DNA of 64,000 nt, taken from positions 124,001-188,000 of the forward strand of contig MU004197.1 in NCBI GenBank assembly GCA_010093605.1, written 5' to 3'. The stretch comes from Lophium mytilinum (lineage: Eukaryota). The notes under the pieces are model-generated. The model made no database searches, was not told where the DNA came from, and saw only the letters and a program-made list of their open reading frames with translations. A program made the position numbers and the translations under genes. Shown here piece by piece: positions 42,508 through 64,000 of this stretch. The stretch's first letter is position 1. Every line of letters starts with the position of its first letter.

Positions 42508-45500
42508 TTACTCGCAGTTCTTAATGGTGTTTGCCCACTCTGTTTCATTGCCCGTCTCGATCCCAGTCACTTCCAGTTTCAATTGCCACTCATACGACTC
42601 TAGAGGAGTCGTGTTCCCCGTGGACGCCTCGTCGAGTGCTTCAATGGCCACGTCCTCCTCCCGAACCATAGCGAGCATCTGGAGCGCCCGCATGGTCTTG
42701 CGCGTGCGGTACCTCTTGTTCGTCTCCAGCAACACCTTCAAGATCTTCTTTAGACCATCGACGCGCAGTTGTTTATGGTTGCCGTAGAACTCGTCGGCGG
42801 AGCGGGGCACAAAGGGAACCTGTGGGCGGTCGTCGCGCTTGCGGAGCTTCGGGGCTCGTGTGGGACGTGTTGCTAACTGCTCTTGCGTCGCGGGGGTGGG
42901 GGTATTGTCCATAGAAGCAGACTGGCCAGGTGCTGGAATAGCTGAGGAAGAATCACCGACTGGAGACGATGTGATTTTTGGCACCGGTAGAATTGGTGTT
43001 AATGGCTCATATGTGCCCAACGAAGAGTCGGGGTCGAAGTGAGGAAGCGTATCCCACATATCGCTCTCTGGCACAGTCGTCGCATTGGATGCCGGATATG
43101 TAAGCTGAGGCGCTGCACTAGAGTCAGATGGCCAGGTGAAAGTGGACGAGAACGGTGTTGGATCCGCGCTGCCAGACCAGGAGCCTCCTCCATCAATTGG
43201 CGGTGGTGGCGCATAGAGGTCCCAGTTGTTGTCGCTAGGATTCACTGGATCGAACCCGGTTGGCTTGGAAGATTGATCAAGGGGCGTGTTCGGCACTGAC
43301 GCGTGGGAGTCAAAGTCGTTGGAACTGCCGGAACGATGGCTCTTATCAACCGCACCGTTGCCAAACGGGGACATGTAAGCAGACCAAACGCTTCTTGGAT
43401 TCGCGTTGCCCAACGCGGAACTTCCTCCTGCAAAGAGGCTCCGCTCCCACTCGTCGTCGTCGGGATCCACGGGATCGAACCCGGTTGGCTCGGAAGGTTG
43501 ATCAATGGGCGTGTTCGGCACTGACGCGTGGGAGTCAAAGTCGTTGGAACTGCCGGAAGAATTGCTCGTAGCAGGGGATCTGTTCATGTAGGGGCTGTTT
43601 TGCACCTCCTCTGCCGATAGAGGTTGCATAAGGCGCGCATCTAGCGCTGGTGGATCTGGCGCTGGCGGCCCTGACGCTGGCGGATGTGGCGCTGCTGGAC
43701 CTGACAACCCTTCCAATGGATTGGCGAAGGGTTTCTCCACATCAACCATTTCGTCAGTGTCATCGTGGCTATTCGATGGTTCACTCATCCGAGGCTCTTG
43801 ACGCCATGGTTCCTGACGCCATGGTTGTGGTCCCAAAACCGGTGCCGAACCCACCTGACCGGGAGGTTGGGTATAGCCATTGTCTGGCGCCTGCGTGTGG
43901 ATAATATCTTCATGGAGATTGACGAAGGGCACGCTCACGTCAACCATCTCATCGTACAGCTCGAATGCTAGTGCCTGTTCTTCTCGATGGACGAGGACGC
44001 GGAGACGAGAGGTCCATGCCGAGCGGATATCTTGACCGTTGACATATAGAAACAAGATGTTGGCGTTAAACTCCTTACTCTTTCGGACCCTGAAGCCATA
44101 AAGATCTGGGCCTAGCACCCTCAGAGGCCTCTTCCGATCGCGACCCCGTTGGAGCCAATGTAGGGTACCAGAAGTAGTAGAAGGATCAACTAGTTCTCCT
44201 GCTCCGGGTATGAAAGTTGGCACAGATGCGAAGATGGGCGTGGGTGCGCTGAAGATTGGACCGATCGGCTGAAGCTGCTGACGACCTGCTGGGTTTACTG
44301 GGGCTTCCTCGGGGACCGCAGAACGCTTTTCAGCGGGGAATGAAATGGTGAACAGATTCCAGCCTGGAGGACGATTCTGCTCGAGAGAGGTTGATTTCGC
44401 AGGGTCAGGGACGAGGCTCGGCAAAGAAGGCTCTAGATCACACGACACATGCTCGGTCTTTGGAGACGGCGTAGCACCGTGAGAGGGACTGTGAGGGGCC
44501 TCCGGCGCATCATCTGGTGGGTCTTGACCATCCACCAGATTCAGCTCGTCTGGAATAGACGTGGTACCCGTAGAATCAATGTTGGTCGGAGGGGGCGACA
44601 GAGGAGCCACAGGAGTGGAAAACGTCTGGGTTGGAAGCACGACATCTGAAGCTACTTCCGATACATGTGATTCGACACCCTGATTCTCGGCCTGAAGCTC
44701 ATGCTCTTGCTTAGCATGATAGTGGTCCGGGACCTCTCCGCTGGAAGTATCAGGACGGAAAGCTGCAGCGATTTGTGATGCGATTTCGGACTCCGGCGCG
44801 CTGTCATCGTCGCTATAAGGTGTGGACGCGCTATCTTCCTGCTGGACGGTCTGATCCTGCTCCTCGGCGTCGCTAGTTTGCTGAGCTTCGTCATGCGCTG
44901 AGGAGGATGTCTGGTCGTCACGGTTGGGCGGCAAAGCTGTACCAAGCTCTGTCTGATTCTCAGGCTCACGGCGGTCTTGTTCGCCGCTTGCTTCGATAAC
45001 GACGTCACCCTGCTGGAGAGTTTGATCCTGCTCGTCTTCCTCGCTATCATGCTGGATCTGTGCACCGTCCGAGGGCGTTTGGGCTTGGTGATCGAGCGCC
45101 AAGGCCGTGTCAAGATCCGTCCGATTCTCAGGCTCACCACTGTTCTGTTCCCTGCTTGCTGCGATATCGACGCGGATTGTAAACTGGGTAACGCTTTCAC
45201 TTGGACATTTTACCACAGCCTGCCAAGCTTTGCGCCTATCCTCCTCCGTCCAACGCGAGCTCAAATCGGAGATAGGCCCATCGTCTTGTTCATCTTCCGA
45301 CGAAGGCTCCCATCTCGGTAAGTTTGATGGAGCTTTGGCCTTCAGGAGACCCGACTTGGGCGGACCTTCCATTCTCGGAACGTACATGCTTACAGATGCA
45401 CGCTCTTCATCGGAGAAGCGCGGTAAAGGTCCGGGAGAACTTGGACGGCGGATCAAGGTCCTTGGTACCTTGACTACTTTGCCGTGATCCATTTGAGGGA

Positions 45501-46863
45501 AGGAAGCATGATAGTCATACCACTTTTTATACGCCTTGAAGGATGGGGTTTGAAATACTGAGTCCGAAGTGATACGGGTGACAATGCCGTCGAATTTGTG
45601 CGTCTCGTTCCAGCATACATCGCTTGCTCCACCATCTTCTTCCTTTGCTTGCTTGTCGTCAGTGAGGTTTCGAACCTCATCTTGCGTGGCTCGACGCAAT
45701 GCGGACTTGTCGAAACTCAGGACTTCAAGCGCATGTATCATACGTGAACGCCAAGCGGATTCGTCGGCATCGAGATTCTGAAGATAGTGCTGTGTGCCTG
45801 GTCGCGATATCGGGGGATCTGGTATGGGAAGAGACACAGCAACCGGAGGGAGATAGACACCCGTGGGGAGATGGAGAGTAGAGCTACTGGCATAGGGAAC
45901 AGGAACCACCTGGCCACCAATTGACGTGAAAGCAAAGAGAGGGCCAGAAACCGGAGGGAGTTTCAAGCCGGTGAGCGCTGGAACTATAGTCTGAACAGGC
46001 AGCGTGTCGATCATGGGTCGGCGGAGATGGCGCAGCAAGGGCGCGATCCGGTTGTTCCAGAGAGCGCAGAGACGGCGCAGCGAGGATGCTATGATGGACT
46101 TGTACATCGCGCCGAGACGGCGCATCAAGGGCGCGATGATGTTCCTGTATAGCGCGCGGAGACCGTAGAGTACACCGAGGAGAAGGGGGATGTTGAAAAC
46201 ATATGGCGCCCACCGGTGGAATGCAATATTGTCTAGAACATTTCCAGGACCGGAATCATCGTCTCCATCGGTTGGGCCAGATGGATCATCGTCTTCCTCG
46301 GTTGGGCCAAGTGGGTCATCGGAGGTCAGAAACGTGACTAGTGGACTTGGTATTAGCAGCGATACACCACGGGAAGAGTAGCATGCATTCTTACAGTTGC
46401 TGAAAGTGGAACCATCCGCAATACCAGATTCATTTTTTGTCTCGGGCTTCGTGTAGTGAATATAGACCACTCGTTTGGGGACGTAATCAGAAAGCGCGCT
46501 GCTGCCAGACCAGTAATCTGCGCTAGAATCTCTGGAGTCGAAGTCTGGAAGGGTCAGGCGGAAGTCTGTGAGAGTGAGGCGGAAGTCTGTGTGGGTGAGG
46601 CGGAAGTCTGTGAGGGTCAGGCGGGTCGGGGCCGGATTGTAGTGCCAGACTGCCTTTCCGGTATTAACAGCTATCTGGAGGCCTGTGTCGAATGTACTGC
46701 GAACCACCTGCGAGAGCAGGAGGATGAACATATCGAACATTCCGACACCAGTAGTGAAATGCCTATAGTTTGATTAGCTTGTCTTTCCAGGTATTCAGTT
46801 GTGAGGAAGGGGGATATAGGGCGCTGAAACAATTCAATGACAGTGACGGGTTTCAACTTACAT
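42508..46863 (-). CDS. G8: array-family protein, ~1400-1418 aa (TM, RATQ motif, disordered region, one KIX-like repeat)
   Basis: 1410-aa ORF. Upstream intron 46861-46763 appears to split the start codon (AT|G). Possible stop-free 57-nt intron at 46394-46338. N-terminus NTGKAVWHYNPAP resembles G2 HAGKATIWYNPRP. Confidence 0.8.
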
Positions 46864-48058
46864 TGTGAGCGGATGTGTTCGAGCAGATTGCTGGCAAGCA
46901 GCGAAAGCAGTGTGCCTGGACCAGAGGCAGCGCGCGAAGTCCAACGACAGTGAAGGAGCCGCAAAAGTGAGGTTGTGGAACACCAAGGCAGGGCGTGGTG
47001 TGGGGTATGAGGTGGTGTGTGGAGTGTCGATGGGAGGTGGTGAGGAGGAAGGTCCGTCAAGAGCGAGGGCAACGGATTGAAATCAGCAGCGTAGGCGCTA
47101 GGCGGCGCTAAGAGCTAGAGGGCACTTTCACTAGTGAAGTGAAATGACGTAATTGTGCGAATTTGATGCGACGGGGTTTGTGTGTCAACATCGGGTATTC
47201 ACTAGTTGTGGGCCTCGCTTTGTACCGGGTCCGGGCAAATTGGTGTTGCAGAGGGAGATTTGGCGAAGAAGGGAGAAGATGCTCAAGGTCTAGCTATATA
47301 TGCATGTAGTGTCGCAGGGGTTGAAAATTAGCTATATTCATAGACTTAGAAGTCATTCAGTCCTCTTTCTACAGTACTGAGTTATATGGTTGGACAGTCC
47401 TTGCAAGTCCTAGGGTGCTCCAAAAAGCATGGAAACTTCGAAATGCCATGTGACGGCCATCCTAGTGGGAATTAGACCACCTTTTGACCAACGGAGGAAT
47501 TGCTCCTTGGGGCACACCTTACAGTAGTGTCGGGAGAGCAAGGGTGAAGCCAAAACCATGGCATATCCATGTTGCCCACATCCAAAGCTCAGTACTGTAT
47601 GCTTATCCAATGCCTTGTTTATAGATCTGGTTTAGCGCGTGTCGCTGTTGACATCTCAATACTCAGACCAAAATATATTCAGGGGGACTAGCAGGTGCTG
47701 TCGCGGCTCTCAAAAGGACTGTTTGATCAGTACGATCTATGCTTGGTTGAAATTAGTACCCATATATCACAATTCTATTCCACGTATCCAATATAGCGCA
47801 GGTAGAATGTAGCATCGCAGCCTTCAAAACACCATGGACGTAGGAGTCTTTCAAACACATATCACCAGTGTCAAATCGAAGAGTCAAAGTTTGTAAATAT
47901 GCTTCATCGGATTCCAAACAGCTATTAAACCATTCAACTGTGATTACCAACAAAAGCTCCCTACTCGCAATACACTCGCACCGTTGACTACAATAGAACA
48001 CACAAAGAAATGAAAAAGATCTAGCATTTACTCCCAACTAGACCGACCTATCTGAGCA

Positions 48059-48212
48059 GGTCTAGCACGCGACCCCGTCTATCAGGACAGAAGTCTCCCA
48101 GCCTCCGCCCCCGCCCCAAATACCTGTATAGTTCCTTTGTCGAGCACGCAGCTATTAGGCTAACGTGTGACTAGCACCATACAGGGTTGAGACGAGGGCT
48201 TGTGTGAACTGA
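48059..48212 (-). promoter_or_regulatory. Class A structured 3'-UTR RNA element of G9
   Basis: Stems GCCCUCGUCUC/GGGGCGGGGGC, CUGUAUGGU/ACUAUACAG, CACG/CGUG, AGC-CUAAUA-GCU and GUC-CUGAUA-GAC. Confidence 0.75.
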
Positions 48213-48325
48213 TGCGTCCCACGGGTGGCCAGAATCGACAGCAATGCAATCGCATTGTAAACAAAGATAGAACACACAAAGGAACAAAGAGAATAGAATC
48301 GACCTCATCCACCAGTCACGTCCTC

Positions 48326-51300
48326 TCAACAGAACTCCTCAGCATCCCCGTACTTATCCGCGAAGTAGTCCTCTGGGTCCTCGTCGTCAGCCGTCGCTTG
48401 CTGAGCAGGCTGGGGCGCCGGAGCAATCGCAGGGGGTGCCGGTGGCTGCGCAGAACCTGTGGAGCTCTGCCCCTTCAGAGGTCGCACGCGGCGCTTCGCA
48501 AGCTGCTCGGTAGAGGCGCGCTTGGGCGTGTCTGTGTCGGCGGAGGCCTGGCCGTCGGAAGATTTGTGTTTGAGCTCGTGATCGTCGTCCTCGTCGTGTG
48601 TAGAGCTTTGATCTTCGCTTGGAGGGCTCTGGTCAGGGCGCGCCTTTGCTTCGGTGCTCTCTTTCTGCGCCTTGCGGTCCTTCAACATCTGCGCCTGAGC
48701 CCCAGAGTCCTCTTCCATGGTCGCCTTCGAGTCCTCATGCAAGGCTTTGTCCAGGGCCTCGGCCTCTTCTCGCTGCTCAAGGATCATTTTGACGTCGAAG
48801 TGGCTGGCTAGATATGCTTGGAACTCCGAGTAAATGGTGAGATAGTAGTTTCGGGAGCCTATCTCGATGCCGCCGTACTCCTGAAGCATCGCCTTTTTGT
48901 ACTCATCTTTTCGATCGGACTCAGGAGATTTGAGCGTTTGCCGAGCGAGGGGTTCTTCTCGAGACCGCGCCCACTCAATGAGTCTGGATTTGCTGAAATT
49001 TGTAGTATACGTCTCGTTTCCCTTCTTTAAGGCGCAGAAGAGTGCGGTAAGGCGGCGTATTCGCTCTTCTCCAAATTTGATGCCCTCGATGTGGTTAGGG
49101 GGTACCTGTAAATTGACTATAGGATCTGCGGGAGGAGGAGCGAGGGCTGTGGATGACGGCGCTGCTATGTTCCGGTTGTTGGGATCAGCGGCTTCTTTGA
49201 GTGCATCTTGATCTTCGACGGTGATAGCCTTGTTTCTCAGAAACTCGAGAAGAACGTCGCTGTCCATGGAAGGCGTATTTTGGAAAAGGTGGGAGATCTG
49301 TTCCTGGATCTTACCGTTGTACCTAGATCTTGAGATCGGCATAGGTACAGAGCTATCGTTCAGCCATCGCGCAGAGAATTCCCGCTCCATTGTTCGCGCA
49401 ATGATTGACAGAAAGTTTTGCGAGTAGCCGGTATGAAGCCGGTCGTTAGCCTCGTCGAGGATCTCGAATATGTCCTCCAGCCGGGATTGGCGCACAGGCA
49501 AGTATTCTGCCACTACGCCAGGGATGTGGAAAGGTTCCAGTTGAGGAATCGTGTCTTCGGAATCTGCATCGACGGCCTCTGCTTCCTCGAGTTCTTCCTC
49601 TTCGAGAATTGGAGCTAGTCCAAATGCATTTGGACGTGTTGGGGACACCGCCCTAGCTTTACCCTTATCTACCCTGCGTTCCATACGTGCCCGATCTGTG
49701 ACACCAGCTGACATCGAAGGCCGTTGGGTTGATTTTTCCTGCAGAGGCTCAGATGACGCACTGGAGGCATAAGAGCTAGCGGCCTGGAATGCGGGCAGGA
49801 TCGTGTCGGATGATGCTGAAGGCACAACCACGTTCGGAAAGGCTGGCTGAGTTTCCATGCCGGCCGGAATTTCAGAAGTAGGTTGAGTCTGATTTTGTGG
49901 TTGACTAGACATGGGTGCATCCTCTTCTTGCGTGGAGGCATCGTCCATGTTCGCAGCTTCCATGCCGGCTGGCATTCCAGACGTCGGCGGAGGAGGATGC
50001 TCATATTGACTAGACCTGGGGGAATCCTCATCTTTCGCGGAGGCATCGGCCATGTTCACAGCTTCCATGCTGGCCGGGGTTTCGGGAATAGATTGAGGCT
50101 GAACTGGAGGTTGACCAAACACGGGCGCATCCTCATCTTTCGTGAGAGCATCCGTCATATCCTGATTCTCCTGCGTCCTGTCCCCGCGGGGTAGCTCCTG
50201 AGCAACTGAAGGCCCAGCACGGTGAGCGTCAGCCTCGTTCTGCTGAGCTGGAAGACCTAGTTTTCCGAAAGGCCACTGATAGTTGGATAGGGCTGGTGCC
50301 TCAGCTCGCGTAGGGGATGAATCGAATATTGCATTCGCTCCCGGAGTCTGTAGCGGTGGAAGTGCTGGTCCTTGCGGACCTGCTGGTGAGGGCTCAGCCA
50401 CACCATCCGACTCTGCCATTTGCAGATCCTCGTTGGGGGGTTGAACCGCGTCCATTTCGGTATCTCCCTCAAATTGAAACCCATCCATATAATTGTCACT
50501 ATGTTTGGGTGGATTCGATGGCTCCTGCATGCCACTAATTTGTTCACCCGCTGGACGCGATTCAGAGCTCAGCAACGACGTGGTCGCGCCGTCAGCCTGA
50601 GTATTGGTATCTGCGTTCGCAGCATTTCCCTCGAGCCCAAACATCGAAGAGCTGTCGCCTTCATCTTGATCGGGCTGAGAGTTTGACAGAGCTGCCCCGG
50701 CATCGTCGTCCGCATATACCATCCTCGCGTTGTCCATATCTTCGGCAGGAGTCTTCAGATCTGGAGCTTGGGTATATGTGTTTTGCGGAGTGCCAAAAGC
50801 AGTAGGGGCACCACCGACACCCGCAGCGGAAGCGACATTCGAAGGCAAAGGGATACCGATATAGGGTGCAGGGATAGAAGCTTGCGCTAGCCCTAAACTC
50901 GGAAGTGCCGGGGGTGCCGTAGAGCTGTTTAGATGTTGGGCAATGTGCTTAGACATATCCGGGGTTTGAATAGGGGAGATGGTTGGAATTGATGGGACTG
51001 AACTTGGTGCATAGGTTTGCACGATTTGATCGGTAGTAGCACTGGCTGGGGGACTCTCTGGAGCTTTAGGTGGAGCCATAACGGTCGGAGCAGCTTCCTC
51101 GATTTTGGGCTGTGGGTCCTCAGCCTCGTCTGACGGCACATATTCCCGCTCAAATATTCTGTGTACTGCCGGGTATTGAAAGTCGTCGCTAACTCCAATG
51201 CTCATCGTAGAGAAGTCAATGATTGGGCCGATGCTCTGAGAGCTCTGCTCAGCGTCTAAAGCAGCTGTACTCTCATCAGACTCCTCGACACCGGTCACAT

Positions 51301-53217
51301 GTGACGAAGAGGTGGGGACTGCATTCGAGACCGGCGAAAGCGACGCAGTGGAAGTTGGCACGTTCGGCACATCGGCCAAGGCATGCGTATCAACTGCTGG
51401 GGGAGCTGCACTAACAGGCGGAGGATTTGATGGAGGCAGTCCCATGCACTTCAATAGAGCAGCAAGCCGAGTCTCGATCTCCCAACCGATGTCGGTGCTG
51501 ACGATCTCCGCAACGCCGTCATCGTCTTCAGTCTCAGTGTCGGAATGCTCCGATTCGGTGTCCTCGTCCAACGACACAGGCTCGCGCCATTGAATCAGGT
51601 CGGATGTTGATCTAGCGGAGTTGACATTGTCGATCTGGCTCTCCGAGGCGTGCTTTTGTATAACTTGGCATGGCTCTGCTAGAGTAAACCCGACAGCGGC
51701 ATCTTGTTGGAAAAGTGCATCCTGTTTCGTGGTGAAGTTGACGTCTGGGGGTTTGATGTTCGAATGGTAGCTAGATTCCGAGACGACAACAGAAGCATCC
51801 TGAATCACGGCGTTTGCGACTGGCTTTTGGGCGGTTGGTTGTGTTTTTGGGGTTCTCTTCTGTGTACGGCGAAGACGACGAAATTTCGATCGCCCAGGCG
51901 TTTCGATATCAGCCTGAATAACCTTTTCGGGTATGGAATGGGCCTTAGTGGGCTCTGCGGCAGGAGTCTGAGCCTGGGGACTTTTAATTTTGGAGTTCTG
52001 ATCCAAAACTGAAGCTCCTTCGACATGACGACGCTCAAGGGAAATCTTCTTGCTCTTGATCGCGTCCTTGGCATCGGAGCTTTCTTTGCCGGAACCGTGA
52101 TGTTGCGCTGGCAATTCTTCCCGCTTCGTGAATTCCTGGGGTTTACGTCGCGAAATTCGCATGTTGCGTCCTCGTGACAGCGCGCCCTCTGGAGGATTTT
52201 CTTCGGGGGCGGGAGGGACCTTTGGCTTAGGCGCGTAGTATTGGAACCAAAACGCGTCAGATTCCGCAACCTCATCCGCCTTCCTTTGGGCCCATTCGGC
52301 CTGGAAACGCGCCTTACGCTCCGCGCGTCTGAGGCTCTGCTTCTTCAAGTGGACCAACATTGCGTCTAGATCGTTTATTAGGCGGAGCCGACGGACTTCT
52401 TTTACGGCGGGGAAGAGAACAAAAATGTAGTGGTCTCTGAACTCTCGCCACACCGTAGTCGGGTCGCGAAACATTCCGAAGGCTTTCTTTGCGTGGGTCA
52501 GTAAATCTAACGCGTCTTGATCGAGCCCAAGGTTGAGGATGTCGTCTTGGGTTGCCCGTCCAGATCTGGGCACCCATATAGAGACTTCGGGCGAGGAATC
52601 TTGGTGCGCGGCGTGAACTAGACGCGAGCAGGTCGGAAGGCTGTGGTGTGATTTAGGTTTCATCTTGCGAGAGAGCTTTGCTTTGAAGCAGCGAAGCGCA
52701 TCAACCGTGCGACGAGAAACCTTTCCGGGCCACTGGTAAAGAAATCGGAACCGCTGAGAGGCGACCGGGACGAATCCAAAGAATGCAGTTGTTGTGCAGC
52801 GGAGTATCGCGTCGCAGTAGCGAAACGTATCCGCTATAGCGTGAGCCACCGCCCCCAGCCATCGAAGAAGTTGTCGGCAGAGTTGGAAGGCGCAAGCAAG
52901 AAGTCCAAGGATCGCAAGAGTCGTGGCGGAAAGGCGTGCTTTGCTCGCGAAAAGGGCATCGGACATGCGGCGGGACATCGCACTGCGCCAGCGAGCAAGG
53001 ACATGGGCATGGGCATATGTTGCGGTGACGAGGATGATGATAGCGAGAATGGCAAAGGGGTATCCGAAGCCTGGGATGAAGCCGCTGAATGAGGCAGGGC
53101 TGGGTGGAGAGGCGTCTAGAGATCACATTAGTAGAGCGCAAGAGGTGAGGGGACAGGCTAATAAGACGCGGGATAGAGCTTACCATTCCGTAAGGGCTCG
53201 AAGTCATCTCCGAGCAT
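48326..53217 (-). CDS. G9: array-family protein, ~1607 aa (TM helices, RATQ motif, disordered region, two KIX-like repeats, basic C-terminal motif)
   Basis: 1550-aa ORF extended upstream through YPFAILAIIILVTATYA and intron 53183-53116 (GTAAGC..CTAAT..TAG) to an ATG at 53217. Start position is uncertain. Confidence 0.75.
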
Positions 53218-54655
53218 CAAACTCAGGTAGTCGCCTCGAGTTTGATCGTCTATAGTGCTTTGGGGAGATGCCGCGATAGAGGAAGGTGCTGCTACCGTGT
53301 CAGAAGGTGGCGCGCAAATGGTCTGCGGGGGAGCCTTACCTCAGAAGTGAGAGAGCGTAGCAGGGTGCCCGGACCAAGGGCAGATATTCAGTGAACCAAC
53401 CAAGGATGCAAGCGCAAGAGCCAGAAGGCTGGTGCGATGCAAGATGGGGCTGGGAGGTGAGGATCAATGGAGGATGGTAGTGGAGAGAAGGGGATCCGGT
53501 CAAGTGCAACAAACAAGTGTAATCTCCGTCGGATGGTTGTCGCCAAGACCTAGACGGGCCACGGTGAATGCAGTGACGGTGGGCGGAAGGGGTGTTGGAG
53601 CTTTCACTCACGTCAATAGACGAGAGAGCCAGGCTTGTTAGAGAGGAGCCTGAACAACGTGGGGCTGCGAGAGTTTTGGCATCTGTCTAGACACTCAGGG
53701 CTCAAGAGGAAGCTCCGATTCCTCGGAGCTGAATGGAAGGTGTTGAAGCGTAGGCGGGTAGGCGGGGAGTGAGAAAAGGTTGTACACCTAGGAATCAGGC
53801 CGCGTACAACTAGTGCTTCCTCTGTTTCGGCAAGTGGCAACTAGAAGAGAATTGATGAAGAGCGTTCACGGCATGATTGAGCAAGGATGCAGTGGCCAAA
53901 TCAAGGATTGAACGCATTCGTACAGAAGATGGTCAAGGCCTAGGGTAAACGTAACCCTAGGCAGAACACGATGGTCCCTAAAGACGATTATTTGGTTACC
54001 GGATGTGATATATAGAACAGAGAAGAACGTCGGAGATAGAAGTCAAGAAATAAAGAATATCCACGTTAAATCGAGAGGTTTGGAGAAAGCGAGAGCGTTG
54101 ATCAATATAACTGTCTTTGCACATAGGTACTATCGGTTCAACATCTTGCAAACATTCTTCTTGTTGACCTACCTAGAGAGCGAATCCATCGGTCGCCTTA
54201 TCTGAGTGCTCACTTACCTATTTCCTCCCACAGCTATACGACATCTTCAGCTCGGCCCTGCTCCACGAGCGGAGCCGCGCAGCGCGTCACTCCAGCTTGG
54301 ATAAAAATCGCGGTGTAAGACCTCCCCGGCGGAGCCCGTTTCTTTACCGCCAGATGCTCGACTGTTCTGGCAGCTTCGACGCAAAGGACAACAACACGGT
54401 TCTGGTGGCACTCGGGTGGCCCTTTAAAGCACGGCGACGCGGTCGGAGCGGACATGTGCTGCTAAAGCTAATCGAGATCAGCCGGAGCCACCGCGAAGGG
54501 AGGCAGTGTACGGCCTCTTGTAGGTGGGGTTTGATGTCCGATGGGATCCTCGTAGAAATGGCTTGTGAGAACTATACGTACTCCGAGGCATGGCAGCAGA
54601 TGTTATGGGAACACCAATCTAATGCATATTGAGCTGAAGAGAAGAATATCAAGAG

Positions 54656-57310
54656 CTAGACTGCGGTATTAGTATATGTAGGAATGTAGAGTAAAAAAGT
54701 AGCATACCTCTGCTTAGACCGATCTAATGCTTTGGCCTCGTCGATCTTCTCCACCCACGCTTTCCGATCGCGAACGGAGAAAGTGCCGAGCGTATGCATG
54801 TGTGTGTTTGTGTTTACAAAGAATTGGTAGATGACCGAGCCACGAGGTACTTCATCGATAATGGTGGCTTTCATGAATTGGTTGTCGATATCTGGGAGGG
54901 TAGCACAGAGCTCGGTCGTTGTCAGAGGCTGGATTGCTGGTCAGTGAAAGGGAATCAAGGCGTAGGAGCTATACCATACCTCTTCCAGAAGCCAGAACTT
55001 TCCCTCTGTAGCACCACTAGCATTGCCTTCACCCTCTTTTCGAGAACGCACTTTGCCCCAAAAGAGATTGTTGTCAAGTAAGACGGCGTGCACTGGAATC
55101 CACTGGCCTTTGCCTCTAATGCGTAATGCGAGCGGTCCTTGGTGGATGATAGTGCGAGCCGGGTCGGAGATGTTCAGTTGATTGAGGAAGTCTACGTTTA
55201 TGGTTTGGATGCGGCGGTAGAGGTTCTGGAGCTGCTCACGACGCGTAGATTTTTCCTGGATCGCACGACACGATTGCTGAAGGTTTTGTAGAGAACGAAG
55301 CGAATGTCTCAAGCTTTCGATCTCTCCCTGATATGCTTGCCCGGATGGCAAGACACCGTATGAGTTCATAATAGAGTTCAAAGTGTCGATATGAAGTTGC
55401 AATTGTAACGTAGGGATATTCGTGAAATCTTCCCATGTCTTGCCGAGCCAGGCAGGTCGCAGACCAAGGGTATTGACGAATGCTCGAAACTTGGGGTCCG
55501 TGGAAAGGGTGAGGCGGACAGCATGTTGAGCATGGGGAAGACGCTGATGATACGTCCGATATGCGACTTGAGACTTTGATACCCAGGCGGTGATGATTTT
55601 GGAATCGCCCGTGGCGAAAGGACTTTGGCTGATTTGTGAGTTTATGGGCAACCGTAGATAATCTTGGTGCAACGCAACCAATTCCTTGATCATTTGAAAA
55701 GCTTCGAGATGTTTCGCCAGAACTGGCCACTTCGAGAGCACTGGAATAACGAAAATTTGATCAAAGGAGGAAAGACGAGTGATGAGGTTCGACTCGGATT
55801 CGACTATCCCAGCCCAGAAAGTGTGGCGGTCTATCTCTTGCGCTGAAACAACCTTAATGTCATCGGTCTCTGAAGAAAGGGTCTTGAACAGGTCTAAATT
55901 GGATTGACTTTTCTCAGATAAAGGTTTGCGGCGAGGCGCCCAAGAACCAGATGTTGTTCGCGGAGAAGAGTCCACAGATCTCGGCGGTCTGCTGTCTACT
56001 GTGGTCGTGGATTCCATTGCGGTACGACTAGAAGATGAGGATACTGCCGAAGACGAGTCCTCGAAGTTCGAAGAAAGAGAGCTTGATGCTCCTGTGGAAT
56101 TAGTTACTACCGATGACCGAAGGGTAGGCGATTGGGGGGTGGCTCCTGGCCGACGTGGGGGTAGAGGCGGTTTTTCTTCCTCCTCGACGTGGGCGTCTAC
56201 CGTGGTTTGCGTGGATGTTGTGCTGCGCACAGAATCCTCGCGCTTTCTAACATTTCTAGATGGGTCAATCGTCGAGCCTGTCTTGGTGGAAACTATGGGC
56301 GGCATGAACGGTAGGTAGCTTCTCTCGATATCATCTAGAAAGGGGTCTCGTTCAATATCCTCAAAGGCTGGTGCATGGAGGCTTGACGCTGGCCCAGATA
56401 AGTCGAGGTTCTGCAGCTCATCGAGCGTATCTGATAGAGGTTGCGATTGTGGCTCATCTTCGTGGTCATCAAAATTGATTAAATCTCCTTCAATGACTTC
56501 AACTGGCGGTTTCGGCTGTTCATTCCGCGCATCGGCAGCGGCCATTGCTCTTCGATATGCCTTGGAATTGACGACCTGGTCATCAAAGTCGAACTCTGCT
56601 TGGCTGGCAATAGATTGTGCATCGACGCCGGATTTGACGTCGAATATAGACGCGGGAACTTTTATCCGGGGATGCGTAGAGCGCAACGACTTGGACCGAG
56701 TTGCAATTTGTTCCAAGGTGCCGGAGTTCTCTCGCAGAAGGCGTTTGATGTCACCCAGGGATTCCCTGTGATGATTACGATTAGCACACAAACATGTTAT
56801 AGCGCAAGCACGGTATCGCACATCTGGAGGCCTTGAATCAAGAGCGTCATAGCAGTCTGCTGACCGCGAATCTGCATCAGCAGTTCTTTCATCCTATCTT
56901 CCTCCCACACTATTCTAGACCGCTGCTTCCAACCCAGCTCACCTCCTGGCAAACCGGAGCCAGCCAACCGCTGCACCTCCTCGTCCAGACACGAGTACAC
57001 AATCATGCATCCCGTCAAAGCAGTATCGAAGGCAGTTTCAAGCTCGGGTTTTTGTCCTAGAGCGTCGCGAAGGAGGAGGCTTTGCACCTGGGAAAGGGCG
57101 GCGCTGATGACCATGGACTCGGAGTAGATAGACGTGATGGTAACGGACGCACCCAGATATCTTTCGCGGAGATCGTAGAGGCCCTTGGCGCACCGTATAG
57201 TTTCGGAGAGGACATTTATCTGCGTACAGCTTAGTAACGTTACGCAGGAAGAGTTCACGCGCCGTGAGATTGATACATACGACGTTAGCGGCGACACTGA
57301 GAGGATCCAT
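54656..57310 (-). CDS. Putative Rho guanine-nucleotide exchange factor-like protein (MDPLS-type fungal N-terminal helical domain + DH + PH)
   Basis: MDPLSVAANV start. Introns 57280-57220, 56821-56766 and 54979-54929 keep frame. DH-like IVESESNLITRL..F..P and PH-like IIHQGPL..W..VHAVLLDNNL..RKAWVEKI. A further 3' intron is possible. Confidence 0.7.
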
Positions 57311-58109
57311 TGTTTGGAGTTTCCGCTATGGCGGACTTGGAAGAAAGCACCCGTTGGTTTTGTTCGCGGAAAAGCTCCACGATTATTTAAGAAGACAGTT
57401 CTGTTACCGGGCATAGCATACTGTTTTGTATTTCAAGGGCGTTTTCGTCTCAAGAGGTGAGATTGATGATGTGACGACGCGACGTGCGATCCCTGCTCGG
57501 AGCGTAAGCGCCGTTTCTCCGGCTGCTTTCGATCTCAACGTCATTCCATCCCACCCCACCCATCCCAGCCATCAACTCCACACACCAATGAGACCTGCTG
57601 ATTAGTAGGCGACCTTAGACAGACCAAAACTCTATGCGCACTCGTTTACCACTGCTAGGGGTGCCGCCATGGGGCGACCACAATGTAGGCATCATGTCAA
57701 GCTTTCGAGAGCGTAAGCTAAGCTCCTTCTTGACTAAGAGGTATCCTCGCGATGGAGCTGCCCCTGACAGTGGCATCCGGCTTGCAAAAGCGGCCGGACA
57801 AAGCTCTATTGTCAGAGTCCTTCTTTGTTAGCTAGGCGTGTTGATCGTTCCCTTTGTTCTCTACTCCACTGATCGAATGCTTAAGACAGCCTGCTTTATT
57901 TAGAAGACACAAAGAAACAATGCACTAGAACTATGCCTGAAACAGGCCAGCGGGCTCAAATATCTGTACAACAATCTACAATTGAATAACATTGACTATT
58001 CCAGCAGCATCCCACAATCCTCGGAAAGTAATCATTTTAATCTCCACAGCAGCAGCATCGATACCTCATTAATTGCACAGAACTTCCGCCGTAGAGCCCA
58101 CCGCTCGTC

Positions 58110-61100
58110 ATGCCACCAGCCCGATCCATCAGGGAATGGTTCCACGACGAGATCATCATCGGCTATCTCAACTTCTATTATCGAATCTATTTCTGCGCTC
58201 TCCATCCACTGACATGCACCGTAGAGACCATTCAGTCGCTTATACATAGTTACTGGGACGGTCTCCAAATCATGCAGAGTGGTTTTCAAGGGCTCCGCAA
58301 TCTGGCCACAGTTGGAGAAAACGAGCATACACCCCCGACGACATTTCTTGAGGATATCTTCGCGGAGGACAGTACTACAGCATATGAATCCGCAGCCCCT
58401 TACTCCGCGTCTACTTTGACCTATATTGACATTTCAACTGACGACATGGGCGTGGAAACCCATTTCTTCAGCGACGAGGACGTTCCAACTTGCACCCCAG
58501 GACTTAGGTGTACCACCGATGTGCTCACTAGCAACGGATTTGCAGGATTTTCGAAATCTGCTGCGTCGCTTTTGAGCGCCACCCCTTTAGCAAACATCGC
58601 TTCTTCTCTCACAACCACCAACAGCAACCCCACTACTCTCCAAACCGCGATAACGACGTCTACCAGCAGCGTCCCTGCCTCCAATCTGACAGGCGGCTTC
58701 TTCGAGCTTGTAAACGACAAGCTAGTTGCGGGATGGACGCTTGGGCACAACTTTGTTTCTGCGATGTTTCGAGGCCTAGTTCTGATTTTCGGCAACTTCT
58801 TCTCCCTGACACACAATTTCCTACGCTCAGCGATTGTAGCTATTGTTACACCTATAAGCAATAAGTTGCTGGAGTGTCGGGCTATCTTTTATGGACTCTT
58901 GTCCTGCATTCGCCGGGGCTGGTTCTCCTGTGAAGGCTTTGTAGAATGCGTGGGAAATTGCATTATTTCAACGTGGCGTAAGATCAAACCATGCGAGGGC
59001 TGGGACGGGTGTAAGTGGTGGATCATGGATCCTCCCTCAAAAGCGCTCTTATTCGCAGCCTTGTTGTTCGTCTCACTTGTTACAATCTTCTATTGGTACT
59101 TAGACAAGTATGAGAGGCGATCCTTGGGGAAATTTGCGCAACCTCCTTTCACTGGCGGTAACCGAAAGGGTGCAGGCAGGAGCGGTAGAGGTGGCGGAGG
59201 CGGCGGCGACGACGGTGGAAATGACAAGAAAGACGGCAAAGACGACGACAATAAACCTGCTCCACACGATCACCCTGCGCCTGAGTCAAGTACCACGTCA
59301 CCTCCTCCAATTCCTGGGTCGACAGTTCCCGCTGGCCAACCTACTGGACCTGCAAATACCAACAAAAGACAAATCAACGGCTCCCAACCCAGCGGACGAC
59401 AAGGCAAAGATATCATAGTAGCTCTTAGAGACATCAACGAACGCTTAAGAAGGGTTGAAAACGCCGGGTCTTCGAAGGCACAAACGGACCTTAAAGCAGT
59501 CAAAGAGCTGGAAGCGAGACTACAACGCATGGTGACCATGTCTAGCAACCCAGCCCAACATGGTGCGGTCAACGTCAATGACGCTGAATATATCAGATCT
59601 CTTGAAGAAAGGGTTCAAGAGCTTGAAAATCCCACTGGTCAGGCCCACTTAGACGAACTTCGGAGCATAGCAGACGCAAAGGACCGCTTTGACCGAAACG
59701 TCGAAGCCAAGCTCGCTGAGATCAAGGCTACAGTCAACGAAGCTAATGAACAGTTCCATCGGCATCGCATGGCTAAAGACCAGCAAAACAAAGAGGAAAG
59801 GGAGAGAGTTGTGGAACTTATCGAAGAGAAGATGAAGGAGGCCAGGGAGGAGTTAGAATCCGAGATCGCCGAGTCAATTGCTAAGTTAGGCAGTGCGCTT
59901 ACATCAACTGTGGCGAGATCAATTGAGGTAACGAACCAGGAGCAGACTCGACCGCTCCGTGAAGAGACCCAAAAAACGGCGGAGAACTTCGTGGCGGCTA
60001 AGAAAGCAAGCGATGAGGCCACCGCTGATATACTGAGAATTAGCAACGGTTTTCAGGACGTACAAAGCCAACTTTTGAGCATGTCTCGGTCTCTTGGGAA
60101 GAACCCCGGTGCAACGACTGTTCCGTCAAACGGTACCATCCAAAGATCAAACTCAAAGGCGGAGCCAAAGGTGGAGCCAAAGGCAGAGCCATCCGGGGCG
60201 GTCCCGAAGAAGGTACTCAAGTATGACGGGCTCTCGCCAAAGCCTGACTACCCCAGAACACCCAAACAGCCCACCGACGCATCCAAGCCAACAATCAAGA
60301 ACTCCGCTGGCAAGAAGAAATCTGAACCAACAACCTGGGCCCCTGTTTCGTCCAGCACAACTTCGCAAGTTAGTATTCCCGTCGCTGCACCGCCTGAAAA
60401 GCCGTTCACGGACCCCATGCCCACCCAAGAACCAGTCACTGAAAATACAAGCAGCTCAGGCACTAATCCGGCAGTATCGACCAAGACCGATGGAGGCGTA
60501 GAGGCGAAGCCCATGCCATCCACACCGATAGACCAAACTGTCAAGGATGATAAGGATGGCATCCAATTGGCAACGCCAACGGGCATTACCGGCGTTTCGC
60601 AGCCTGGATTGAAGCCGAAAGTTGAGTCCGTTGAAAGCGTAAAGTCGAAGCCGGCGCCATCCGCACCGGTCGACCAGACTGTCAAAGATGATAAGGATGG
60701 TATCCAATCCACGAAACCAAATGGCATTACCAGCGTCTCGCAGCCTGAATCGAAGCCGAAAGTTGAGTTCGTTGGAAGCGTAAATTCGAAGACGGCGCCA
60801 TCCCCGACGATCGATCAGACTGTCAAAAAGGGTAAGAATAACACCCAACTTGCAAAGCCGACAGACACGTCCAGAATCTCGCCTCTTGTAGCGGCCCCGA
60901 AAATTAGCACAAGTGCAACTGCTCCAACCGCCGCTGGTAAGGTTCCGAGTAAAAAGGGCAAGCGAGAGCCACCGCCTCCGCCATTCCTAACCGCATTGCC
61001 TCCTTTAAACCCATTCGCCCCACCTCCCGTCACTGCGAGTCGAGTGGGTGGTTTTGATCCGAAAGCTCACGAGGAGGCTTTGGCAAGTGGCAAGATCGAT

Positions 61101-64000
61101 TTCGGAGCCGGTGGCATGGGCAAATTCTTCCCGGTGAAGAAAGAGACAGAACGAGAAAAGCGGCGGACCCCCACAGCACCCGTTGCCACGCCGAGCCTAT
61201 TGCCATTTGTTCCCAGTTCAGATCCTTCAAGCAACACTAACCACCCCCCAGTCTCATCTACCTTTTTGTGGCAGGTGCCCAAGGCTGACCCTCCCCGTAG
61301 CAACGATGGACCTAAGGCCCCGACAGGACGGGAGGATGTGACTATGGGGGAAGCGAAGGCGGAGGTGTTACAACAACCATCAGGGCCACCATCGTTAGGA
61401 AGTTCAGTGTGGGGACCGTTCTCAGGAGCTGGTCCCATGCCGGTCCATATCAACTCTTATCAGCCGCCGGGCCCAGATTCCGTACCCTCATTTCCGCCCA
61501 AAGAACACTTAGCATCGTCAGGAGATCGCATGGAAGAATCTGGCCAAGATTACCAGAACGAGGTAGCACAGCGTGAAGCACTGCTACAAGCGCGAAAAGA
61601 AGCAGACGCACAGCTACTAGCACAGCAAGAAGCGCAAGCACAGCTATTGGCACAAGTACAGCCACAACAATTGGCAGAGGAACAATTACGACTGCAGGCA
61701 CAAAATCAAACGCAATCAATCAACAACCCGCCCTTGAATTTGAGCCAAATATGGCAGGGGCTTCAAACAAAGCAGCTGCCACAAGGTCCAGCGGGAGCTA
61801 GTGTAACGGGACATTACCCTCAAAGGCCTCAACCAGGATCCAATGACGTGGATATGGCAGACGTCGACGGTGTTCAAATACAGGCTGTTGGGCCTCTTGA
61901 GGCGCTGCAGGACGAACCGGGAACTTCAGATACGGTCAATGGTACCATCGACCCTGATTCGAAACTTTCGCCCATGCAGTCGTCATTTGCTTCGCTTCAA
62001 GCCCGACCAGAAGAGCCTCTAAAAGCTCTTTTGATCAACAAGGTACCAGAGCCGGCATACATGAACCACGCGCTTAGTACTTTTCGACACCGTATCACAC
62101 AGATCGTCAAGCACTATAACGACACGTATAGGGACTTCAAGGATTCGGAGGGGCTGGCCGTCAATCTTGACGATATCATCATGCAATTCGTGGATTCCTG
62201 GCTCAAAGCAATTGCCTTGGAGGCCAACGGGCAGGACGAGCCTTTTAGGGTGATTGAGCACCGAGGCGCGCAAGTTCTGCATCATCTCTCGACAGCCACC
62301 AAAAGCGAATGGGCTGTAATGGTTTTTGAATACACGTCGTCAGGCGGTGAAGTTATCTTGCCAGCTTTAGACACCCCTATAATGACACAAGGCGGCGGCG
62401 TAAACACTGGTTCGGACCCTGGCGTGGCGACGGGCATTGGCCCTGTGGGTGGACAAAGAGGATTTGTTGCGACTGACGACGAAGTCAAAATGCATGGCGA
62501 GGGAATGGAGCGTAATGGGATACACTATTCCAACTGGGTCCTCCAGGGAAATGACGCTCTTTTCCAACATGTCAGCAATAGATATTACGACGAACTCGAA
62601 CGGCTTGTATTATCTAAGAATGACCAGCACCGAGAGCTGGTTGATCGCCAGGGTAGGCCGCTCAACTTGGACATGATGGGCTCGTCCTTTATGCTAAAAC
62701 TTCTTGACGACATCGCCCACAGAGCAGTCAAAGGCAACGAGCTCCCCAGTATTAAAGCCGACGCAAACGCAATATGTCGGAGAATTGAGCGGATGGGCGC
62801 TACTGAGTGGCAGGCAACGCTGCAGGACTTTGTTGATAGAACTGGCGCGAGGAAGCTTCCGGATATGCCTGATTCTGTTCAGGCGGAAAAGCAAGCGGAA
62901 GTGCCTCAAACTCCCAAAACATCCTCAAAGAACACTTCCACGCCGAAGGCCAGACCGCCTCCGACTGGCACCTTGTTCAAGCATGAAGCCAAACCAGTTT
63001 ACCGCAGTCATGCCCACAAAAAAAGTGGCAACGCTCTCAAAAAGATCGCCAAGGAAAAGAACAAGCTGTTTCGAGTTCCTGGCTTAGGAGAAACGGGTGC
63101 TCTGAACCTAGATGGCATGGAAGATAGTTTTGTCGATTTCCTCTGTGACACGATTGCAATGCAAGCCAAGGGCAAGAACGTATTCGAAAATCAATTCGAG
63201 GAGGTTGAGGCAAGGGGCTACCAGATGGTAAGGGAATTAAAAGATTCTAGCGCCGAACAGTGGGCCGCGTGGGTGCAAAGATACCACGACCGCCTTCTCG
63301 TCGCTCCAGCATCTTCTGGTTTACGCCCTGTGCAAATTCAAGGATCATTCGCGAAGAATGAGACTGAGGAAAACATGCGAGCAGTGTACTTCCCCCGTCT
63401 CCTTGCCTTGGTGAAATCTAAGAACGAACAATACCAAGGGCAAGTCGATAGCTTCGGCAGACCACGAAGCATTCATGCCAAAGAGTTCAACCGTATGGCA
63501 AAGCTGATTCTCGACCGGATAACGACAAGGGTACAGCAAAATGGATCCGCAGACTATAAGAGCAATGCGGACAACGTCATCCAAGAGTACGAAGAAGACG
63601 AGGGCGGCCACAGCTGGGAAGGCTTGTTACGAGGTCTTCGCGCCCCACAAAATCAGCGTCCAAGCATCATATCACCGGCAACACCCACAGCACTTGCAAC
63701 CCCGTCTACGCCCCTATCTAATTCCAACAATCCATACCCCACTCACTCAGGAAACTGGCAGACGGAGGCCAGCCGCACGCACCAAGCCAACGCAATCGCT
63801 CAAAAGTACAAAGGCTATGTCGACACATCTGCGTCGGGTGACGACGCGCTTGTTGACTTCTGCAAAGTCGTCGAGGGACAGGCCTTCAAGCGCGCTAACG
63901 GCTCCTACGATGGCTACAAATTCGAAGTGAAGAAGGCACTGAACAGCGCTGCTGAAAAGGTGCGCAACATGTGGCAAAAGGAGCGTATTAAACAGACCGA
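58110..64000 (+). CDS. G10: array-family protein, >1960 aa, runs off the window (TM, coiled coil, 47-aa repeats, four long helical repeats and one KIX-like domain)
   Basis: ATG at 58110 (MPPARSIREWF...ALHP, compare G4 ALHP). No stop found in the stretches translated, and absence from the ORF track fits a frame running off the end. TM segment ALLFAALLFVSLVTIFYWYL. KIX-like NWQ..SR..LVDFCKVVEGQAFKRANGSYDGY at 63750-63960. Confidence 0.8.
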   Translation, partial: MPPARSIREWFHDEIIIGYLNFYYRIYFCALHPLTCTVETIQSLIHSYWDGLQIMQSGFQGLRNLATVGENEHTPPTTFLEDIFAEDSTTAYESAAPYSASTLTYIDISTDDMGVETHFFSDEDVPTCTPGLRCTTDVLTSNGFAGFSKSAASLLSATPLANIASSLTTTNSNPTTLQTAITTSTSSVPASNLTGGFFELVNDKLVAGWTLGHNFVSAMFRGLVLIFGNFFSLTHNFLRSAIVAIVTPISNKLLECRAIFYGLLSCIRRGWFSCEGFVECVGNCIISTWRKIKPCEGWDGCKWWIMDPPSKALLFAALLFVSLVTIFYWYLDKYERRSLGKFAQPPFTGGNRKGAGRSGRGGGGGGDDGGNDKKDGKDDDNKPAPHDHPAPESSTTSPPPIPGSTVPAGQPTGPANTNKRQINGSQPSGRQGKDIIVALRDINERLRRVENAGSSKAQTDLKAVKELEARLQRMVTMSSNPAQHGAVNVNDAEYIRSLEERVQELENPTGQAHLDELRSIADAKDRFDRNVEAKLAEIKATVNEANEQFHRHRMAKDQQNKEERERVVELIEEKMKEAREELESEIAESIAKLGSALTSTVARSIEVTNQEQTRPLREETQKTAENFVAAKKASDEATADILRISNGFQDVQSQLLSMSRSLGKNPGATTVPSNGTIQRSNSKAEPKVEPKAEPSGAVPKKVLKYDGLSPKPDYPRTPKQPTDASKPTIKNSAGKKKSEPTTWAPVSSSTTSQVSIPVAAPPEKPFTDPMPTQEPVTENTSSSGTNPAVSTKTDGGVEAKPMPSTPIDQTVKDDKDGIQLATPTGITGVSQPGLKPKVESVESVKSKPAPSAPVDQTVKDDKDGIQSTKPNGITSVSQPESKPKVEFVGSVNSKTAPSPTIDQTVKKGKNNTQLAKPTDTSRISPLVAAPKISTSATAPTAAGKVPSKKGKREPPPPPFLTALPPLNPFAPPPVTASRVGGFDPKAHEEALASGKIDFGAGGMGKFFPVKKETEREKRRTPTAPVATPSLLPFVPSSDPSSNTNHPPVSSTFLWQVPKADPPRSNDGPKAPTGREDVTMGEAKAEVLQQPSGPPSLGSSVWGPFSGAGPMPVHINSYQPPGPDSVPSFPPKEHLASSGDRMEESGQDYQNEVAQREALLQARKEADAQLLAQQEAQAQLLAQVQPQQLAEEQLRLQAQNQTQSINNPPLNLSQIWQGLQTKQLPQGPAGASVTGHYPQRPQPGSNDVDMADVDGVQIQAVGPLEALQDEPGTSDTVNGTIDPDSKLSPMQSSFASLQARPEEPLKALLINKVPEPAYMNHALSTFRHRITQIVKHYNDTYRDFKDSEGLAVNLDDIIMQFVDSWLKAIALEANGQDEPFRVIEHRGAQVLHHLSTATKSEWAVMVFEYTSSGGEVILPALDTPIMTQGGGVNTGSDPGVATGIGPVGGQRGFVATDDEVKMHGEGMERNGIHYSNWVLQGNDALFQHVSNRYYDELERLVLSKNDQHRELVDRQGRPLNLDMMGSSFMLKLLDDIAHRAVKGNELPSIKADANAICRRIERMGATEWQATLQDFVDRTGARKLPDMPDSVQAEKQAEVPQTPKTSSKNTSTPKARPPPTGTLFKHEAKPVYRSHAHKKSGNALKKIAKEKNKLFRVPGLGETGALNLDGMEDSFVDFLCDTIAMQAKGKNVFENQFEEVEARGYQMVRELKDSSAEQWAAWVQRYHDRLLVAPASSGLRPVQIQGSFAKNETEENMRAVYFPRLLALVKSKNEQYQGQVDSFGRPRSIHAKEFNRMAKLILDRITTRVQQNGSADYKSNADNVIQEYEEDEGGHSWEGLLRGLRAPQNQRPSIISPATPTALATPSTPLSNSNNPYPTHSGNWQTEASRTHQANAIAQKYKGYVDTSASGDDALVDFCKVVEGQAFKRANGSYDGYKFEVKKALNSAAEKVRNMWQKERIKQT
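60500..60860 (+). repeat. 141-nt (47-aa) coding tandem repeat in G10, ~2.5 copies
   Basis: GAYCARACTGTCAA recurs at 60531, 60672 and 60813 (DQTVKDDKDGIQ...). Confidence 0.85.

Follow-up and report, generated by a model that had tools for sequence, protein, structure and literature searches.

The DNA examined here is a 64-kb stretch of contig MU004197.1 of the fungus Lophium mytilinum (64,000 nucleotides, referred to as the window throughout), and it shows eukaryotic gene structure at a G+C content of about 52%. Eleven ATG-started open reading frames (ORFs) of at least 250 amino acids were identified in it, nine of which lie wholly inside the window; eight of these nine are stop-free over 1.3–6.9 kb. 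The frames were labeled A to K. Once J is excluded, they match the genes G1 to G10 of an initial annotation, which had described a C-terminal repeat of the encoded protein family, located at nt 63750–63960 and present in variable copy number, as a KIX-type three-helix bundle. The fold and the distribution of this repeat are the subject of the present analysis.

The window is best explained as a cluster in which about ten paralogous, rapidly diverging genes of a Mytilinidiaceae fungus lie in tandem. The family proteins are best described as chains of 1400–2500 amino acids with a hydrophobic anchor at the N-terminus (in most members), a coiled coil, a very long disordered region of Ser/Thr/Pro and acidic residues, and one to three C-terminal helical modules of about 70–85 amino acids. 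Frames of 4–7 kb stay open in this region, and five of the family genes correspond to annotated proteins. The frame of gene F (31523–32866, 447 amino acids) shares 99% identity with a hypothetical protein from L. mytilinum and 60% with another from Mytilinidion resinicola, two species of the Mytilinidiaceae (Dothideomycetes). In a Pfam scan of the 11 whole ORFs, no frame reached a gathering score, and neither a KIX nor a TFIIS family was found. The comparison of the frames with each other by BLASTP revealed weak similarities only: nine pair matches had an E-value (E) below 0.01, seven of which were located in the C-terminal parts, while two linked F to the N-terminal parts of G and H.

Both sequences quoted for the repeat in the initial annotation are present in the window. 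The one given for G10 corresponds to residues 1882–1950 of frame K (nt 63753–63957), and the one given for G3 to residues ~1764–1815 of frame C (ORF 11588–18505, minus strand; nt ~13060–13215). A profile hidden Markov model (HMM) of nine seed copies was run against 838 six-frame pieces of the window with a length of at least 40 amino acids. Two copies were added in the first round (E 2.2e-5 and 0.0017) and the search converged at 11, with no other piece under E 0.1. Three more divergent copies (B1, C2, and E3) were added on the basis of BLASTP pair matches or weak HMM support, resulting in 14 copies of what is termed the main repeat in the following. When each copy was tested against a profile from which it had been left out, all 14 were recovered at E ≤ 0.0044 (B1 0.0021, E3 0.0044). 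The short module of gene K, designated K5, was borderline in the same test against the main-repeat profile (E 0.048), and its link to the main repeat is modest in hhalign (P 0.0018 and 0.0016, probability ~15%). The resulting copy numbers are two in B, C, and I, three in E and F, one each in G, H, and K, and zero in D. They are equal to the counts made by eye in the initial annotation for nine of nine genes, the single copy of K being borderline.

Most of the module-bearing genes are encoded on the minus strand. Gene B (G2) contains its modules at 5089–5661 (the divergent B1 at 5443–5661 and B2 at 5089–5328), gene C (G3) at 12299–13228 (C1 at 13040–13228, the copy quoted in the initial annotation, and C2 at 12299–12529), gene E (G5) at 26605–27831 (E1 at 27613–27831, E2 at 27034–27264, and E3 at 26605–26832), and gene I (G9) at 48863–49510 (I1 at 49268–49510 and I2 at 48863–49084). 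Genes G (G7) and H (G8), also on the minus strand, have a single C-terminal module each (34690–34938 and 42541–42786, respectively). On the plus strand, gene F (G6) contains F1 (31823–32065), F2 (32186–32416), and F3 (32510–32749) within 31823–32749. All of these were assigned by HMM and leave-one-out profiles. The consensus of the main repeat reads R-x3-L-x2-I-[FY]-x2-L-x3-N, a loop, S-x3-L-x3-A-x2-R-E, a variable loop, and E-x2-Y. The R of helix 1, the E of helix 2, and the Y of helix 3 are invariant in all 14 copies. Conserved L/I/F residues at positions i, i+4, i+7, and i+11 of helix 1, together with L and A in helix 2, form a periodic, core-like pattern.

Gene K (G10; 58110–63998, plus strand) is an open frame of 1963 amino acids that remains open at the window end. 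The corresponding annotated protein P0010 (1700 amino acids) starts at nt 60513 and extends ~540 amino acids past the window. Within this gene, the three-helix module K5 is located at 63756–63968 (plus strand), with predicted helices at about nt 63765–63809, 63837–63893, and 63906–63995 and an ORF that goes on beyond the last position of the window. It is preceded by four long modules of ~100 amino acids each (K1–K4; 62049–62348, 62535–62846, 62991–63296, and 63360–63647, plus strand), which constitute a separate repeat type with invariant N, I, and W residues. The initial annotation had listed four longer variants of the short repeat in G10. Such elements do exist at 62049–63647, but they are not the same repeat and display no KIX signal: the profiles of long and short modules showed no relation in hhalign (P 0.3), 0 of 6 PDB matches of the long-module profile were KIX, and no Pfam family of note was found with it. 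The long modules were rejected as KIX variants on the basis of the hhalign and PDB results. Two more long-module copies were detected past the window at amino acids 1171–1258 and 1471–1561 of P0010 (E 1.5e-4 and 3.6e-5), and a second short module, K7, at amino acids 1370–1451, matching K5 at E 3.7e-6. The presence of K7 and the further long copies in P0010 indicates that the end of K consists of alternating short and long modules. A third short module near the end of P0010 (about amino acids 1600–1700), which appeared KIX-like by eye, was detected neither by the K5 nor by the family profile and was not retained.

The fold of K5 was assessed in three ways. A feature search of the ESM Atlas using the K5 sequence only placed KIX clusters first, with PF02172 in 88% of the members, a score of 0.89, and 180 of 256 features; on the scale of this search, a score under 0.9 is regarded as a lead and at least 170 shared features are typical of true family members. 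All ten of the ten best named matches share one family or clan. The template-free AlphaFold2 model of K5, for which the input alignment comprised K5 and 14 family copies, consists of three helices (residues 11–25, 35–53, and 58–87) with a mean predicted local distance difference test score (pLDDT) of 77.6 and values of 88–94 in helices 2 and 3. When this model was compared with 350,542 PDB chains using Foldseek, ranks 1–7 of 36 matches were all occupied by KIX domains of CBP/p300. The best match (6dmx_D) had a probability of 0.96, template modeling (TM) scores of 0.62/0.66, a root-mean-square deviation of 3.0 Å, and 22% identity, with 18–24% identity across the seven matches. KIX is the nearest known fold for K5. 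The KIX-type fold proposed in the initial annotation thus gained support from three methods for the module at 63750–63960, and we consider it likely that K5, and K7 as well, possess this fold; K7 probably adopts a KIX-type three-helix bundle.

For the main repeat, the profiles used against the PDB (177,635 sequences) and the AlphaFold2 alignments comprise only sequences of the window. The best match of the 11-copy profile was Med15 KIX from Candida glabrata (4d7x_A; E 0.031), with an end-to-end alignment of profile positions 7–77 to positions 10–74 of the 86-residue chain. The 14-copy profile again retrieved Med15 KIX first (E 0.022), followed by CBP KIX 4i9o and 1kdx (E 0.54 and 0.63), so that three of seven matches were KIX. 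With K5 added to the 14 copies, Med15 KIX reached E 0.0078 and CBP KIX E 0.43 and 0.47 (three of six matches KIX). The score of Med15 KIX thus improved stepwise with the sequences added. The family R, E, and Y and the hydrophobic positions align with R, E, Y, and hydrophobic residues of the Med15 and CBP KIX chains; a conserved aliphatic core of KIX (CBP L603, L607, I611, L628, L653, I657, and I660) is described in the excerpts of PMC3936767. The long-module profile of gene K, taken from the same protein as K5, served as a negative control.

Structure models cover two of the 15 modules, K5 and F1. The F1 model contains three helices (5–26, 33–49, and 62–77; pLDDT 76.3), and both models are compact three-helix units with 28–33 residues at pLDDT ≥ 90. 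The initial annotation had named AlphaFold and Foldseek as a check of its proposal. Both modules were predicted as three-helix bundles and the structure search with K5 returned KIX first, but F1 gave no match at E < 1. The F1 model fits TFIIS domain II, dynein, SRI, Sld7, and LYR-type subunits of complex I about equally well, and these fold matches lie in the noise. Among the top 25 of 48,161 chains, many small bundles that bind RNA polymerase II (Pol II) or activators were found (KIX, TFIIS domain II, SRI, RECQL5, and Bye1), an accumulation to which no probability can be assigned. In our view, the main repeat is very probably a three-helix bundle. Whether it is a diverged member of the KIX/TFIIS-domain-II class appears evenly balanced. 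Its homology to KIX, which we infer from Med15 KIX being the top match at E 0.031–0.0078, has evidence that is only suggestive.

The distribution of the repeat was investigated by searching 1.84 billion representative proteins with its profile. Eight proteins were found at E ≤ 0.001: four are encoded in the window itself (F, I, E, and B), three originate from M. resinicola, and one is bacterial. The three M. resinicola matches are located on one 483-kb scaffold and have close accession numbers. The bacterial protein P0008 (1545 amino acids, E 2.4e-6) was judged to be spurious, an artefact of composition or of repeats; it contains many Ala/Leu-rich helical repeats of 39 amino acids, with five partial matching stretches. 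Word-based searches with F and with the K region yielded nothing beyond the respective protein itself and its M. resinicola orthologue, which is truncated in the case of K, and a search of proteins with the K5+K7 profile found the K protein alone. Within the reach of the profile and word-based searches, the family therefore occurs in one fungal family only, as a syntenic cluster present in two genera. When orthologues are compared, the modules are somewhat more similar than the remaining protein (68% versus 52% in F and 41% versus 32% in B). Literature searches on Lophium or Mytilinidion and on tandem, KIX-like, or membrane-anchored KIX domains, in which supplements of KIX papers were outside the scope, retrieved no paper on this family.

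Transcript evidence was available from one public run, X1, in the form of contigs, the kind of which was guessed as RNA. Five CT..AC joints were found over gene J (four at a depth of 64 and one at 20), the sole deep spliced cover within 44001–63998, and these spliced contigs show that X1 does contain RNA. Genes I and K were covered by low-depth pieces only (0.4–3.9), including the bin 63344–63998. No pieces were found on H, and parts without cover prove nothing. Gene J itself (54941–56545, minus strand), which was not counted among the family, showed a weak RhoGEF match. Its region (54400–57300, minus strand), located between the family genes I and K, is RhoGEF-like with 25.7 bits at a cut-off of 27.6 bits.

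Several results weigh against a KIX assignment, and none of the searches by sequence alone was significant. In the K5 model, helix 1 reaches a pLDDT of only 61–65, and the E-values of the Foldseek KIX matches are only 0.5–4.2. Because the model was built on the family alignment, the model and the Foldseek result are not independent of the weak link between K5 and the family. No KIX chain was retrieved from the PDB at E ≤ 10 by phmmer with K5 (only clathrin light chain, E ~0.6), by phmmer with P0010 (nothing relevant), or with the K5+K7 profile (only calpain-3, E 0.84), and a Pfam search with P0010 and five Mytilinidion proteins revealed no KIX or TFIIS family. For the main repeat, two disjoint half-profiles of seven copies each found KIX in 0 of 7 and 0 of 1 PDB matches, which characterizes the KIX match as marginal and not robust. 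Pfam KIX, KIX_2, and TFIIS_M were matched by 0 of 14 copies at E ≤ 10. With copy F1, the ESM Atlas search yielded only phage clusters and clusters of domains of unknown function, with low recognition and no lead to KIX. Finally, three-helix bundles arise easily by convergence. The excerpts of the KIXBASE paper (PMC5668377) describe homology between KIX classes and kingdoms as hard to detect by sequence.

Such results could be accounted for by a lineage-specific three-helix bundle without KIX ancestry, whose likeness to KIX would reflect convergence and chance residue matches. The marginal sequence scores (E 0.0078 at best, with the half-profile and Pfam results just given), the similar fit of the F1 model to several other folds, and the lack of a detectable relative beyond two species among the 1.84 billion representatives are in line with this explanation. 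However, KIX chains ranked first in three kinds of search (profile, language-model features, and structure), the control profile from the same protein returned 0 of 6 KIX matches, and the KIX score rose with each addition of sequences; we therefore regard convergence as possible, but doubtful. The main repeat could also be a TFIIS-domain-II-like module of the TLD/RECQL5 type that binds the Rpb1 jaw of Pol II and is not an activator-binding KIX domain. The best TM-scores of F1 in Foldseek (0.54 and 0.52) belong to such chains, the structural overlap of RECQL5 KIX and TFIIS domain II is described in the excerpts of PMC3936767, and the 14-copy profile also matched helix 1 of yeast TFIIS (E 0.76). 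This match, however, spans 24 residues, five of which belong to a His tag, none of the 14 copies is recognized by Pfam TFIIS_M, and K5 resembles CBP-type KIX, not TFIIS, in Foldseek, which makes a TFIIS-type module unlikely. It is highly improbable that the segments are not independently folded domains, being helical stretches of coiled coil or disorder, or that the ORFs are not genes. The proteins are mostly of low complexity and the RNA evidence is thin, with low-depth contigs only, but the compact models with their well-predicted cores, the periodic hydrophobic pattern with invariant R, E, and Y, the five annotated genes, the orthologues that share a scaffold in another genus, and the frames kept open over 4–7 kb argue against this explanation.

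On balance, we somewhat favor the reading that K5 is a KIX-type bundle and that the 14 main copies are three-helix bundles, most likely divergent relatives of KIX or TFIIS domain II, which would serve as docking modules on anchored disordered tethers. The initial annotation is thereby partly supported: its observation of the repeat was confirmed, and the proposed fold is supported for the module at 63750–63960 and, in the remaining family members, plausible with weak support.

The anchor was predicted from a Kyte–Doolittle scan. Six of the ten family ORFs (B, C, D, G, I, and K) have a hydrophobic segment of 19–27 amino acids near the N-terminus, which partly supports the membrane tethering assumed in the initial annotation, but no such segment was found in A, E, F, and H at the threshold used. 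In K, the transmembrane-like segment covers amino acids 309–332 (59034–59105, plus strand), and the orthologue P0011 has a hydrophobic segment at amino acids 293–323. Gene D is a short family member with a transmembrane segment and a coiled coil and no KIX-like module. The last ~16 residues of ORF D (20287–20334, minus strand) resemble a ubiquitin-interacting motif (Pfam UIM 13.3 bits, E 0.075, under the cut-off of 21 bits). In ORFs B (4504–8877), C (11588–18505), E (26242–30678), and G (34660–40128), all on the minus strand, the disordered region was seen by eye to contain an Asp/Ser/Glu run (D-S-D-D-S-D type) and, after it, a Gly/Ala stretch (G-A-G-A or G-Q-G-G-A-G). The same succession is present in P0007, the orthologue of B.

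The transcript structure of gene K bears on the connection between anchor and modules. A single contig of run X1, of low depth, lacks 86 nt of frame K that have GT..AG ends (60369–60454, plus strand). With this splice, the frame encoding the anchor and the coiled coil stops three codons further on, and P0010 begins at the next ATG at nt 60513. In M. resinicola, the model P0011 continues without interruption across the stretch that is homologous to the 86-nt intron, as judged by eye. The splice, the start of P0010, and the read-through in P0011 together indicate that K could exist in two forms, either as an anchored full-length protein or as separate anchor and module-array products. Retention of the 86-nt intron may decide whether the K module array stays attached to the anchor.

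Hints to a nuclear location came from basic segments, two of 18 of which matched Pfam NUP50 (PF08911; gathering cut-off 22.5 bits) when scanned as isolated pieces of 85–87 amino acids. The two are of the R-K-I-x-R-x-R type. The segment of G (36655–36909, minus strand) scored 27.2–27.3 bits as an isolated piece and 19.6 bits within the whole ORF. The C-terminus of I (48392–48646, minus strand) reached 18.2–20.6 bits, and P0006, a fragment of its orthologue in M. resinicola, 18.8 bits. The part of Nup50/Nup2 matched by PF08911 binds importin-alpha. For these segments, the sequence similarity is a hint of nuclear targeting and of binding to importin-alpha. In the Nup50/Nup2 context, release of cargo bearing a nuclear localization signal (NLS) in the nucleus is described in the excerpts of PMC7891619. 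The idea of nucleoporins with phenylalanine–glycine (FG) repeats was dropped, since only 1–8 FG dipeptides per ORF were found.

Compared with known systems, the modules share some features and differ in others. In the excerpts of PMC3936767 and PMC5668377, KIX domains appear only in coactivators and helicases of the nucleus (CBP/p300, Med15, and RECQL5) and in some plant proteins. The kind of domain is already known, and what is new here is the occurrence of putative KIX-type bundles in a lineage-restricted architecture. Like KIX, an independently folding unit of three helices and about 80–90 residues, the modules K5 and F1 are predicted three-helix bundles, although Pfam KIX (PF02172), KIX_2 (PF16987), and Med15_N (PF09606) do not recognize the modules. 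In contrast to CBP/p300 (PF02172; 1kdx, 4i9o, 5svh, 6dmx, and 9jej), whose Pfam model misses the modules found here, the protein that carries them is neither an acetyltransferase nor a coactivator; it is giant, mostly disordered, equipped with a hydrophobic anchor and one to three copies, and encoded by about ten tandem paralogues. The KIX domain of Med15/Gal11 (4d7x, 2k0n; KIX_2/Med15) occurs once, at the N-terminus of a conserved Mediator subunit, whereas the modules described here are C-terminal, multiple, and confined to one fungal family, and their scores against Med15 KIX are marginal and lost when the profile is halved. Matches to TFIIS domain II and its mimics (the TLD of PHF3 and Bye1, and RECQL5 KIX/IRI) were in the noise, Pfam TFIIS_M (PF07500) gave no match, and the family lacks the zinc ribbon, SPOC, PHD, or helicase context of these proteins. 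Plant tandem-KIX proteins and KIX F-box proteins, as covered by the excerpts of PMC3936767, likewise contain KIX outside coactivators and in more than one copy. They belong to another kingdom and have other architectures, for which these excerpts report neither a membrane anchor nor a giant disordered tether. A resemblance to Heh1/Heh2 and Pom121, membrane proteins that have an NLS and a long disordered linker, concerns the architecture only (membrane anchor and very long disordered region, with a Nup50/Nup2-type basic motif in two members); LEM/HeH and MSC domains are absent from the family.

Disordered activators dock to KIX domains through short amphipathic helices, whereas RECQL5 KIX binds the Rpb1 jaw of Pol II, thereby mimicking TFIIS domain II (excerpts of PMC3936767). 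By analogy to known KIX domains, each module could receive a short amphipathic helix provided by a disordered partner. Displayed in differing numbers on the distal ends of long, flexible tethers, the modules would form multivalent capture scaffolds, which in most members would be anchored in a membrane. Helix 3, which is poorly conserved and varies between paralogues, could diversify what is captured. Ligand type, topology, and cellular site are inferred. The same applies to the suggestion of the initial annotation that the modules bind transactivation domains or Pol II, possibly as decoys. According to the excerpts of PMC4695851 and PMC4569319, Heh1/Heh2 reach the inner nuclear membrane by means of an NLS and a long disordered linker, combined with a membrane anchor. 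It is conceivable, but rather improbable, that the cluster encodes proteins of the nuclear envelope, in which the anchor, the Nup50/Nup2-like motif, and the long disordered linker would lead to the inner nuclear membrane in a Heh2-like manner. The KIX modules would capture transactivation domains or Pol II there and form a paralogue-diversified sink or tether for transcription factors at the nuclear periphery, and in K, the 86-nt intron would set whether the KIX array is attached to or apart from the anchor.

If the likeness to KIX is convergent, the modules would represent an orphan helical repeat of local interest. If they are KIX-type docking sites, the fold would have been recruited to giant, anchored, disordered proteins, and within a single small fungal family it would have spread to about ten tandem paralogues that vary in their number of copies. 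The cluster would then provide about 17 diverged KIX-like surfaces as a natural panel on which changes in the ligand specificity of such bundles could be studied, and the modules would offer the first functional handle on an orphan, rapidly evolving gene cluster of the Mytilinidiaceae.

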